Assembly: GCA_963700635.1 (NCBI GenBank)
Contig: CAVOYH010000004.1
Span: 736,001 to 800,000, forward strand
Source of the DNA: an uncultured Bacteroidota bacterium
Lineage (GTDB): Bacteria > Bacteroidota > Ignavibacteria > UBA10030 > UBA6906
Length of the DNA: 64,000 nt
Direction of reading: 5' to 3'
The stretch's first letter is position 1. Each line of letters begins with the position of its first letter. A program made the position numbers and the translations under genes. Below the pieces are notes generated by a model that made no database searches, had not been told where the DNA came from, and was given only the letters and a program-made list of their open reading frames with translations. Positions 53,248 through 53,508 of this stretch are shown here, one piece after another.

Positions 53248-53508
53248 TTACGGGCGCGGCGAATCGGGGATTACTGGTACGCCGGAAGTGCGTGGGCGCG
53301 GGGAATCCGGAATCACGGGAACACCGCTCGTCCGCTCTCCAACCACCGGGCGCGGGGAATCGGGAATCACAGGCACTCCGCTGGTCCTTGGACGCGGGGA
53401 ATCGGGAATCACAGGGACTCCACTGGCAAACGCTATGGCTGCGTTTGTAGCGGCTACCGCCACTACTGTGATTACCAGTGAACGAAACCGACGAGCGGTC
53501 TTTGACAT
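53248..53508 (-). CDS. 86-aa secreted precursor peptide with four identical SGVPVIPDSPRP cores
   Basis: GGAGGAG RBS; 28-aa signal peptide ending AFA; four cores identical in amino acids but synonymously diverged in DNA. Confidence 0.88.
   Translation of the reverse strand: MSKTARRFRSLVITVVAVAATNAAIAFASGVPVIPDSPRPRTSGVPVIPDSPRPVVGERTSGVPVIPDSPRPRTSGVPVIPDSPRP
53251..53424 (-). repeat. four 36-bp coding repeats separated by 6/18/6-bp linkers
   Basis: Cores at 53389-53424, 53347-53382, 53293-53328, 53251-53286. Confidence 0.92.

Follow-up and report, generated by a model that had tools for sequence, protein, structure and literature searches.

The window analyzed here, a 64,000-nucleotide (nt) stretch of the genome of an uncultured Bacteroidota bacterium, holds a short gene for a peptide precursor. 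In this protein, the same 12-residue unit, the core SGVPVIPDSPRP, comes four times over behind a signal peptide. The gene is real, it belongs to a family, and its architecture fixes both ends of the repeated unit; it is also linked in a cassette to the genes of a membrane protein with eight transmembrane segments (the 8-TM protein) and of a regulator of the AAA+ type. We found that selection acts on the peptide copy by copy and that the core co-varies with the 8-TM protein. The explanation that we favor, and to which we give an even chance of being right, is that of a prohormone-like signaling peptide that is exported by the Sec pathway and has the 8-TM protein as its sensor. That the precursor is exported and cut into units, and that the peptide is sensed and has a regulatory output, are proposals drawn here from sequence comparisons and are worded accordingly below.

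Core copies are held to the same peptide

The sequence-only reading of this DNA had described a signal peptide, four identical cores, the linkers RT, VVGERT and RT, and a stop codon directly behind the last core, and translation of 53248..53508 confirmed this layout. The codon differences that it quoted among the copies were all correct: 12 of the 36 core nucleotide sites are variable in the window's precursor, and all 12 are synonymous, including a serine AGY/TCC switch, which leaves the residue the same and takes two base changes. Pairwise identity between the copies is 69–89% in DNA vs. 100% in protein. Since the changes are synonymous only and Tandem Repeats Finder (TRF) reported no DNA tandem array at the precursor, the repeat is one of protein level and not the product of recent DNA slippage. 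Three open reading frames (ORFs) lie over the precursor on the opposite strand (53194..53481, 53205..53450 and 53288..53521), and their repeat units are non-identical; the precursor frame is thus the conserved one. The sequence-only reading had named better conservation in another frame, or as DNA, as the observation that would count against it, and it is the protein frame that is conserved.

The comparison of synonymous and non-synonymous changes that was proposed at that stage was extended to relatives, using the last 10 codons of every unit, compared pairwise within each of 42 distinct precursor DNAs. Altogether, the copies showed 780 synonymous vs. 95 non-synonymous codon differences; of the latter, 46 are due to a single precursor, in G389, that alternates two core types, and another 17 to the decayed precursor of G001. 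In 28 of the 42 precursors there was no non-synonymous difference at all alongside at least one synonymous difference. Between close species, the copies showed no positional orthology, with synonymous sites near saturation; for instance, copies at the same position in G000 and G002 differ at 6–9 of 36 sites, and the signal-peptide region at 11 of 84. One precursor has two DNA-identical copies, which indicates a recent duplication. Together, the saturated synonymous sites, the lack of positional orthology and the recent duplication show that core units are born and lost, each being held to the same peptide. The earlier proposal of a putatively exported multi-core precursor under selection on its peptide is thus well supported by the copy comparison and by the homologues described below.

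These results also bear on the idea that the repeat is a DNA or RNA element, or the ORF a chance one, for which its shortness and the lack of a database name could be quoted. That idea is effectively refuted by the synonymous-only pattern, in the window and likewise in 28 of 42 relatives, and we give it practically no credence: TRF found no repeat, the other frames are less conserved, a search of Rfam with 51000..56500 gave no match, and 110 cluster representatives match the precursor at E ≤ 0.001.

The signal peptide was called by rule, from a basic n-region, a hydrophobic core, an A-x-A end and the conservation of residue A28. In the window, the n-region MSKTARRFRS is followed by LVITVVAVAATNAAIAFA, with an 18-residue hydrophobic core and A-F-A before SG, so that, judged by rule, the precursor has the n-region, the h-region and the small residues at −3 and −1 of Sec-dependent secreted proteins. 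Among 28 aligned homologues, R7, R9, T14, N22, A24 and A28 (numbering of the window protein, P0001; A28 is the final Ala of A-x-A) are each conserved in at least 90%. The segment is therefore conserved beyond what is ordinary for signal peptides, with a T-N pair within the hydrophobic core and the A-x-A end. Twin-arginine export was considered and appears unlikely, as the RRFRS stretch does not seem to fit the twin-arginine motif and many homologues have KR. The precursor has no family in Pfam, NCBIfam or PADLOC, in line with the sequence-only reading, which had recognized none in bacteria, and against the Protein Atlas it gave just scores of 0.80–0.83 to unnamed clusters, which are below a meaningful level.

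The precursor family has a free copy number and a constant unit

A word-indexed search retrieved 35 metagenomic homologues of 54–124 residues, all of them hypothetical proteins and one labeled 'Ignavibacteriae bacterium'. All but one have a very similar signal peptide followed by 2–5 cores that end in P-R-P or P-K-P (34 of 35); the exception, P0036, keeps the signal peptide and has an aberrant tail. When 1.84 billion cluster representatives were searched exhaustively with a profile, 110 matched at E ≤ 0.001, 40 of them at 1e-10; about 85 of the 110 are short proteins aligned from the signal peptide onward, and the long matches look like unrelated proline-rich proteins. In sampled genomes, a single precursor protein matched 27 of 61 relatives, and the profile was positive in 32 out of a class-wide sample of 401 genomes, with 14 of 14 in the window's family and 6 of 8, 5 of 23, 1 of 16 and 1 of 1 in other families of the order. 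Four profile matches lay outside the order, two of which, in long ORFs, are probably spurious; one out-of-order precursor ends ...PDSPK-stop. A single-protein search for related loci with P0010 returned three, all in metagenome-assembled genome records named 'Bacteroidota bacterium'. By these searches, the family was found in only one class of Bacteroidota, apparently Ignavibacteria. No description of it was found in the literature, searched by titles and the starts of abstracts, and the motif PDSPRP led only to unrelated papers.

We pooled 77 distinct precursor strings, a few of which may be one gene with a different start. Core copy number varied from two to seven (2 in 11 precursors, 3 in 23, 4 in 38, 5 in three, 6 in one and 7 in one), and 69 of the 77 terminate exactly at P-[RK]-P-stop, the other eight carrying an extra S, L, TNN, DIAIH, DIAVR or TSSKVG. 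Behind an internal P-[RK]-P, the next residue was K at 107, R at 34 and S at 21 of the 194 junctions (K or R at 141). The spacer between the signal peptide and the first core, judged by eye and uncounted, mostly ends in K or R as well, like the internal linkers. Distant members have different cores, for example SGVGTVPDAPRP, KAGLSMIPDSPRP, FAADATMFQPAPRPS, DGGVEIPIPPRP and TLDPNNPIYGSPRP, with the same architecture and signal-peptide signature.

Variation within the core was followed among 13 proteins with at least 22 of 28 signal-peptide identities (the window protein included), 12 of which have a core that could be parsed, P0036 being unparsable. Among these 12, SGVP and PDSPRP are mostly kept (exceptions, P0030 and P0021), and positions 5 and 6 read VI, II, MI, ML, IL, AI, TT, TR, VR or VGK. 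These two positions differ between most of the 12, P0004 and P0006 both having IL, and in nine of the 12 they are the same in every copy; the mixed precursors are P0007, P0021 and the decayed P0030. The pattern is reminiscent of pherotypes.

Some precursors stand out. The 196-residue precursor of G389 (L087/L070) has seven units in which two core types take turns, ..ADATMFQPAPRP and ..ADACNYQWAPRP; it is the only clear two-peptide precursor. In G014 (L076/L025), the precursor runs over two frames and has PGP at the end of its last core; here and in G001, the system may be decaying, or the assembly may contain indels. G020 has two precursor genes with a nearly identical core, SGVATIPDMPKP: one (L030) adjoins an 8-TM gene at a contig end, and the other (L012) lies on a different contig with no 8-TM or M50 gene within 1.5 kb.

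The 8-TM protein and the regulator are the likely dedicated partners

The gene of the 8-TM protein is divergent from the peptide gene and is followed by that of the regulator, and a gene for a peptidase of family M50 lies downstream of the peptide gene (Table 1). The sequence-only reading had suggested a search for signal-plus-repeat ORFs upstream of homologues of the protein encoded from 54030, that is, the 8-TM protein, and such ORFs were indeed found there in 25 of 30 small loci and in all 16 large ones. In the same 25 small loci, both the M50 and the 8-TM gene flank the peptide gene; four others are cut by contig ends, and the last is the orphan copy L012. The 16 large loci, of 18 kb, come from several families and include one from a family outside the window's order; all 16 keep the order regulator, 8-TM, peptide and M50, with a family 2 glycosyltransferase (GT2) gene beyond the regulator. 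An 8-TM profile was positive in 43 of the 401 class genomes, which contain 30 of the 32 peptide-positive ones, and when four loci with the 8-TM gene only were inspected, three proved to have a divergent precursor not picked up by the peptide profile, and the fourth is cut at a contig end. In a sample of 401 genomes from the phylum, the 8-TM protein was found in 19, all within the window's order.

To find out which neighbors belong with the peptide, we turned to five high-quality genomes of the window's order that lack the 8-TM protein. An M50 orthologue (44–54% identity) was present in all five, with other genes upstream, and GT2 homologues lay about 2–9 kb from it on the same contig, also in all five. 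A regulator orthologue was not found in any of the five, the best matches having 24–31% identity vs. 55–78% for orthologues from cassette-positive genomes. Since these genomes retain M50 and GT2, the unit that is gained or lost consists of the peptide, 8-TM and regulator genes and sits between the two. The dedicated partners of the peptide would accordingly be the 8-TM protein and the regulator and not the adjacent M50, a point that the sequence-only reading had missed; the M50 is probably an older conserved neighbor not dedicated to the peptide. As a dedicated processing enzyme it fails the co-occurrence test, its orthologue being present in five of five genomes without peptide, 8-TM and regulator.

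The M50 nevertheless invites another explanation, in which the small protein is a substrate or regulator of the peptidase, cleavage of its membrane segment serves as a switch by regulated intramembrane proteolysis or yields a signal-peptide pheromone as in enterococci, and the repeats form an accessory ectodomain. Wherever the contig reaches far enough, the M50 gene follows the peptide gene immediately and in the same orientation, it appears to be an accessory one (the window genome has three M50 genes, and a 471-residue RseP-like one is encoded elsewhere), and the signal segment is conserved and holds T-N, helix-destabilizing residues being typical of substrates of site-2 proteases. Set against this are the persistence of the M50 orthologue in genomes without the other three genes, the terminator-like hairpin that usually separates the peptide gene from it, and a low correlation between core and M50 distances (r 0.24; partial r 0.05, p 0.31). 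It would also leave the protein-level identity of the repeats unexplained, and we consider it improbable.

The peptide core co-varies with the variable front of the 8-TM protein

For the 8-TM protein, at least 442 homologues were found; none has a Pfam domain, and all are either unnamed or labeled hypothetical. The protein itself had no match in Pfam, NCBIfam or PADLOC, none in a sequence-profile search of the Protein Data Bank (PDB) and no usable match in the Protein Atlas; in particular, no HisKA/HATPase, TPR or other Pfam domain was detected, so that it has the hallmarks of neither a histidine kinase nor an RRNPP receptor. An AlphaFold2 model built with 15 orthologues (pLDDT 84, pTM 0.78) has eight long helices; a beta-hairpin lies in a segment of some 75 residues (160–235), and the C-terminal tail is modeled with low confidence. 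By the positive-inside rule, applied to K and R counted by eye in the loops, segment 160–235 would lie outside, and both the N-terminus and the tail would be cytoplasmic. Foldseek found nothing in the PDB for this model at E ≤ 0.001; the top rows, helix bundles of the G protein-coupled receptor type (TM-score about 0.3, rmsd > 9 Å), were rejected as a generic bundle likeness with no relationship. The protein is variable at its front and conserved at its back, with a mean pairwise identity of 0.36 in residues 1–159, 0.37 in 160–235, 0.54 in 236–336 and 0.56 in the tail.

We compared distances between cores with distances between parts of the neighboring proteins. In 25 genomes, core edit distance correlated with the distance in 8-TM residues 1–159 (r 0.64), also when the C-terminal half was controlled for (partial r 0.54; permutation p 0.0005). 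For the 21 genomes with all proteins, the correlation was 0.61, with partial values of 0.53 when the regulator and 0.58 when M50 was controlled for (p 0.001). In these 21, the equally divergent segment 160–235 reached only r 0.21, the C-terminal half 0.31, M50 0.24 and the regulator 0.36, and all four correlations vanished when residues 1–159 were controlled for. The useful part of this test is its internal control, a region that changes equally fast and carries no signal.

A second observation came from G001 (L075/L011), in which three shifts spread the 8-TM gene over four frames and the M50, regulator and GT2 genes, as well as a 1032-residue alignment to a CHAT-domain protein, remain in a single frame. 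The precursor of this genome has three unlike cores, with 17 non-synonymous vs. 6 synonymous differences. This co-decay of the 8-TM and peptide genes supports the link between them.

A complex prediction for the 8-TM protein with precursor residues 29–86 scored 0.38, vs. 0.00 for the best of three controls, which gives weak support; the runs had a contact agreement of at least 15% and a partner pLDDT of at least 28. Of 80 solved complexes, 58 attain the mark used for this score, as do 2 of 110 mismatched pairs; among those that attain it, a score of 0.60 or less is seen for only seven of the 80 solved complexes and for both mismatches.

The 8-TM protein also has paralogues (about 30% identity), which stood beside a regulator resembling bacterial enhancer-binding proteins (33–39% identity) in four of four loci: L112 (G059), L113 (G043), L114 (G051) and L115 (G040). 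This pairing fits a sensor-regulator pair. The paralogues are sometimes two in tandem. A filter search of the four loci found no P-R-P repeat peptide near them; in L115, a 92-residue ORF (8213..8491) is divergent from the paralogue and has a similar hydrophobic N-terminus with Asn and no repeats.

A prohormone-like signal and its alternatives

In the reading that we favor, the precursor would be exported by Sec and cut by signal peptidase at AFA|SG, leaving a 58-residue tail with four copies of SGVPVIPDSPRP. Cutting in the linkers would then release linear 12-mers with a free ...P-R-P carboxyl end, either by an endoprotease that acts after a basic residue, followed by trimming, or by a cut after the final Pro. 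The peptide would accumulate outside the cytoplasmic membrane and be recognized by the variable N-terminal helix bundle (helices 1–5) of the 8-TM protein, whose conserved cytoplasmic tail would control the regulator, itself devoid of a receiver domain. The hypervariable core positions 5 and 6 would set specificity in the manner of pherotypes.

Several points weigh against this reading. Neither cutting option fits all linkers: the residue before the core is inconstant (K, T, D, A, S, N or G), so that no protease can be assigned, and in the window a cut after R leaves an extra T. The adjacent M50 is of the intramembrane type and persists without the peptide. GAFTGA, the loop that contacts sigma-54 in enhancer-binding proteins, is absent from 16 of 16 regulator orthologues, which have a GVEGLP-type loop in its place (NGQGVEPA in the window). 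On the side of the peptide–8-TM link, Mantel-type tests on 21–25 related genomes overstate significance among kin, the co-decay concerns one genome, possibly a long-read assembly in which assembly error is possible, the complex score lies in a weak band with one of three runs at 0.00, and the second precursor copy of G020 (L012) stands away from any 8-TM or M50 gene. Finally, the host is presumably diderm, and Sec would take a peptide of about 1.2 kDa only as far as the periplasm, so that a role between cells would need a further passage across the outer membrane; the signal may thus be autocrine or periplasmic, or use an outer-membrane route.

The inconstant cleavage residue would fit a tail that is never cut, with the whole protein staying in the periplasm, or tethered to the membrane if the signal segment remains as an anchor. 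Its 2–7 identical proline-rich motifs would then act as a multivalent ligand or regulatory partner, either for the 8-TM protein or for some other protein of the envelope. The cassette contains no dedicated soluble protease, a strongly conserved signal segment including the T-N pair would fit a functional membrane helix, and the linkage to the 8-TM protein suits it just as well as it suits a released signal. We nonetheless regard an uncut tail as unlikely. The exact stop after P-[RK]-P in 69 of 77 precursors points to a free C-terminus in the product, and the extra tails, such as DIAIH, TNN and TSSKVG, look like a discarded follower. Moreover, copy number is free and the unit constant, the linkers are short and mostly K or R with first-core spacers that end alike, and the A-x-A signal-peptidase site is conserved.

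That two core positions change rapidly among closely related members would also fit an arms race, as expected if the precursor were a polyprotein of competition peptides resembling bacteriocins or proline-rich antimicrobial peptides, with the 8-TM protein providing immunity or export and the regulator controlling production. Co-variation with a membrane protein could then reflect immunity specificity, and the layout resembles that of insect proline-rich antimicrobial pre-pro-polyproteins with a P-R-P motif, as portrayed in parts of two papers (PMC11549390, PMC11678341). The core, however, is net neutral (one D, one R) and neither cationic nor amphipathic, nearly every genome has a single precursor gene, and the cassette contains no ABC exporter or bacteriocin-type processing gene. 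The constant pairing of the 8-TM protein with a transcription regulator, seen also for the peptide-less paralogues, is sensor-like, and a role in competition thus seems to us quite improbable.

A bolder form of the signaling reading is that of communication by linear peptides in a diderm, with two-residue pherotypes and a new class of 8-TM receptors that gates a GAFTGA-less regulator without a histidine kinase; we think this possible, if rather doubtful. It carries the side claim that the synonymous scrambling would itself be selected, as it would stop the array from collapsing by recombination. Should the signaling reading be true, it would represent a form of peptide signaling not described for Gram-negative-type bacteria and would give functions to two families that lack an assigned one, the precursor and the 8-TM protein. 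It is easily testable: the linear 12-mer can be synthesized, natural variants differ at two positions, and the genes for a candidate receptor and regulator are adjacent. In diverging at synonymous sites only, the copies are, in addition, a clean natural case of repeat maintenance at the protein level with scrambling at the DNA level.

Regulator, expression signals and neighboring genes

The regulator carries Sigma54_activat (PF00158, 1.8e-22), an AAA lid (PF25601) and HTH_8 (PF02954, 2.4e-12), the AAA+ and helix-turn-helix combination of sigma-54 enhancer-binding proteins. Neither a sensory nor a receiver domain was detected at its N-terminus with Pfam and NCBIfam. Its scores on the PspF models, TIGR02974 and PRK11608, fall far under the cut-offs, and rpoN is present in the window genome.

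Table 1. Coordinates of the precursor, its cassette and neighboring features in the window
Feature	Coordinates	Strand	Remarks
Peptide precursor gene	53248..53508	-	86 aa + TAA; signal peptide, then four identical 12-aa cores
Signal peptide, aa 1–28, MSKTARRFRSLVITVVAVAATNAAIAFA	53425..53508	-	Ends AFA; by rule and alignment
Core 1, SGVPVIPDSPRP	53389..53424	-	Begins directly behind AFA
Core 2, SGVPVIPDSPRP	53347..53382	-	Linker RT (53383..53388) in front
Core 3, SGVPVIPDSPRP	53293..53328	-	Linker VVGERT (53329..53346) in front
Core 4, SGVPVIPDSPRP	53251..53286	-	Linker RT (53287..53292) in front; TAA (53248..53250) directly after last Pro
Shine-Dalgarno sequence GGAGGAG	53511..53517	-	2 nt before precursor ATG; read directly
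5' leader of peptide gene	53509..53790	-	About 285 nt, judged from predicted promoter
Predicted sigma-70-like promoter of peptide gene, TTGACA-N17-TATATT	53795..53823	-	11/12 matches
Hairpin (72 nt) with U-run, terminator/attenuator-like	53124..53204	-	Between peptide stop and M50 start
Peptidase M50 (site-2 protease family)	52084..53103	-	HExxH and LDG motifs; PF02163, 1.1e-21; downstream of peptide gene
Sigma-54-type element TGGCAC-N5-TTGT	53885..53900	+	Upstream of 8-TM gene; sole one-mismatch match in window
CRP/FNR-like palindrome TGTGA/C-N6-G/TCACA	53923..53938		Upstream of 8-TM gene
Predicted sigma-70-like promoter of 8-TM gene	53975..54003	+	Motif scan; conserved in same-genus loci
8-TM protein, 395 aa	54030..55217	+	Divergent from peptide gene; no known family
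AAA+/HTH_8 regulator, 344 aa	55251..56285	+	33 nt behind 8-TM gene
GT2 gene, split	56185..57526	-	Overlapping ORFs 56708..57526 (PF00535) and 56185..57012 (PF13632)
H-type lectin domain protein, 121 aa	57623..57988	+	Signal-like N-terminus; PF09458, 1e-16
Sigma-70 region 4 protein (137 aa), unnamed protein (265 aa), TPR + CHAT protein (1105 aa)	47530..52129	+	Convergent with M50
TPR-CHAT protease gene	48812..52129	+	Third of the three genes above
B12-binding domain ORF, 602 aa	43090..44898	+	PF02310, 4.2e-9; next ORF 355 aa, no family

Both hexamers of the predicted peptide-gene promoter are kept in five of five same-genus loci. The first part of the leader is also conserved in all five and has no match in Rfam. 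Behind the peptide gene, a 171-nt stretch with the hairpin has a minimum free energy of −58.5 kcal/mol (z −2.85), and a stricter hairpin-plus-U test was passed by 26 of 32 relatives vs. 36 of 320 shuffles, the window's own hairpin exceeding the length that this strict test allows. Together with the strong Shine-Dalgarno site and the predicted promoter, the hairpin counts among the expression signals in favor of the reading preferred above. On the 8-TM side, the sigma-54-type element recurs about 145 nt before the start codon in 5 of 30 loci vs. 2 of 600 shuffles and is, with only these five, clade-limited; the idea that 8-TM operons have a sigma-54 promoter in general was therefore rejected. 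The CRP/FNR-like palindrome lies about 100–107 nt before the 8-TM start in seven loci of the window's family, and the pattern occurs anywhere in 9 of 30 loci vs. 3 of 600 shuffles.

Among the flanking genes, the TPR-CHAT protease was considered as a processing enzyme and rejected, since it occurs, along with its two upstream genes, beside the cassette in only 7 of the 16 large loci, all from the window's family. By eye it has a signal-like segment at its N-terminus and a hydrophobic one at its C-terminus, and it looks like part of a separate three-gene unit (47530..52129). The split of the GT2 gene is either a frameshift or an assembly error; the G005 orthologue is a single 370-residue ORF (L064:12156..13268). 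The H-type lectin domain is better known from animals.

Comparison with known systems

Secreted precursors with several peptide cores include yeast alpha-factor, insect precursors of the apidaecin type and the multi-domain CLE and CEP precursors of plants. In KEX2-processed precursors, a dibasic KR or RR precedes each repeat, often with spacers for a dipeptidyl aminopeptidase. The family described here shares with such eukaryotic polyproteins a signal peptide, several identical or near-identical proline-rich cores of 12–13 residues, short and mostly basic linkers and a last core at or near the C-terminus. The likeness to alpha-factor drawn in the sequence-only reading thus holds for the signal peptide with tandem identical cores and fails for a KEX2-like layout, as dibasic sites are not the rule: the 194 junctions have a single K (107) or R (34), and the window has RT and VVGERT. 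The present family differs further in being bacterial, in linkers of single K or R or of RT, KT or KD in place of dibasic KR with spacers, in the lack of a pro-region in most members, in having no identified Kex2, furin or subtilase partner and in showing no sequence homology by Pfam. Insect proline-rich peptides, too, are made as pre-pro-polyproteins with Pro-Arg-Pro motifs, according to parts of the two papers mentioned above (PMC11549390, PMC11678341).

Multi-core precursors of peptides made by the ribosome and modified after translation (RiPPs), of which the cyanobactin PatE type is an example, similarly contain several cores per ribosomal precursor, with variable positions between conserved flanks. 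Cyanobactin-like RiPPs have adjacent genes for modifying enzymes and proteases and a cytoplasmic leader with recognition sequences. The precursor here has instead a Sec-type signal, its conserved cassette is without a modifying enzyme, macrocyclase or dedicated protease gene, and its cores are free of Cys and show no arrangement of Ser or Thr suggestive of modification, so that it lacks the features by which a RiPP is recognized.

The AgrD/AgrB/AgrC and ComC/ComD systems resemble the cassette in placing a small precursor gene beside a polytopic membrane protein whose variable N-terminal membrane part co-varies with the hypervariable part of the peptide, in the regulator gene alongside and in specificity groups that differ between close relatives. 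They are Gram-positive systems, whereas the host here is presumably a diderm member of the Bacteroidota. The tandem cores and the predicted Sec export have no known counterpart in them, and the precursor has neither a thiolactone nor a double-glycine leader; its membrane partner is without a histidine-kinase domain or a known fold, and the regulator is of the AAA+ enhancer-binding type and not a response regulator. In this last respect, the closer parallel is to PspF-type enhancer-binding proteins, which likewise combine AAA+ and HTH_8 without an N-terminal sensory domain, and by analogy with PspF the neighboring membrane protein could control the regulator in trans. The differences are the GVEGLP-type loop that replaces GAFTGA (16 of 16) and the absence of a PspA homologue from the cassette.

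Eep, an M50 peptidase, processes the signal-peptide pheromones of enterococci and streptococci. As in these Eep/RseP systems, an M50 gene adjoins that of a small, apparently exported peptide with an unusually conserved signal segment; here, unlike there, it is the repeats behind the signal peptide that are under selection, and the M50 persists without the peptide. The family thus resembles eukaryotic polyproteins in layout and Gram-positive pherotype systems in gene logic and is a member of none of these systems, lacking dibasic sites, RiPP enzymes, a histidine kinase and GAFTGA as well as any sequence or fold relationship to them. Secreted precursors with tandem cores are characteristic of eukaryotic hormones, pheromones and immune peptides, and bacterial multi-core precursors are mainly those of cytoplasmic RiPPs. 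Compared with both, what would be new is a bacterial family of putatively Sec-exported tandem-core peptides, apparently unmodified and tied to two uncharacterized partner families.

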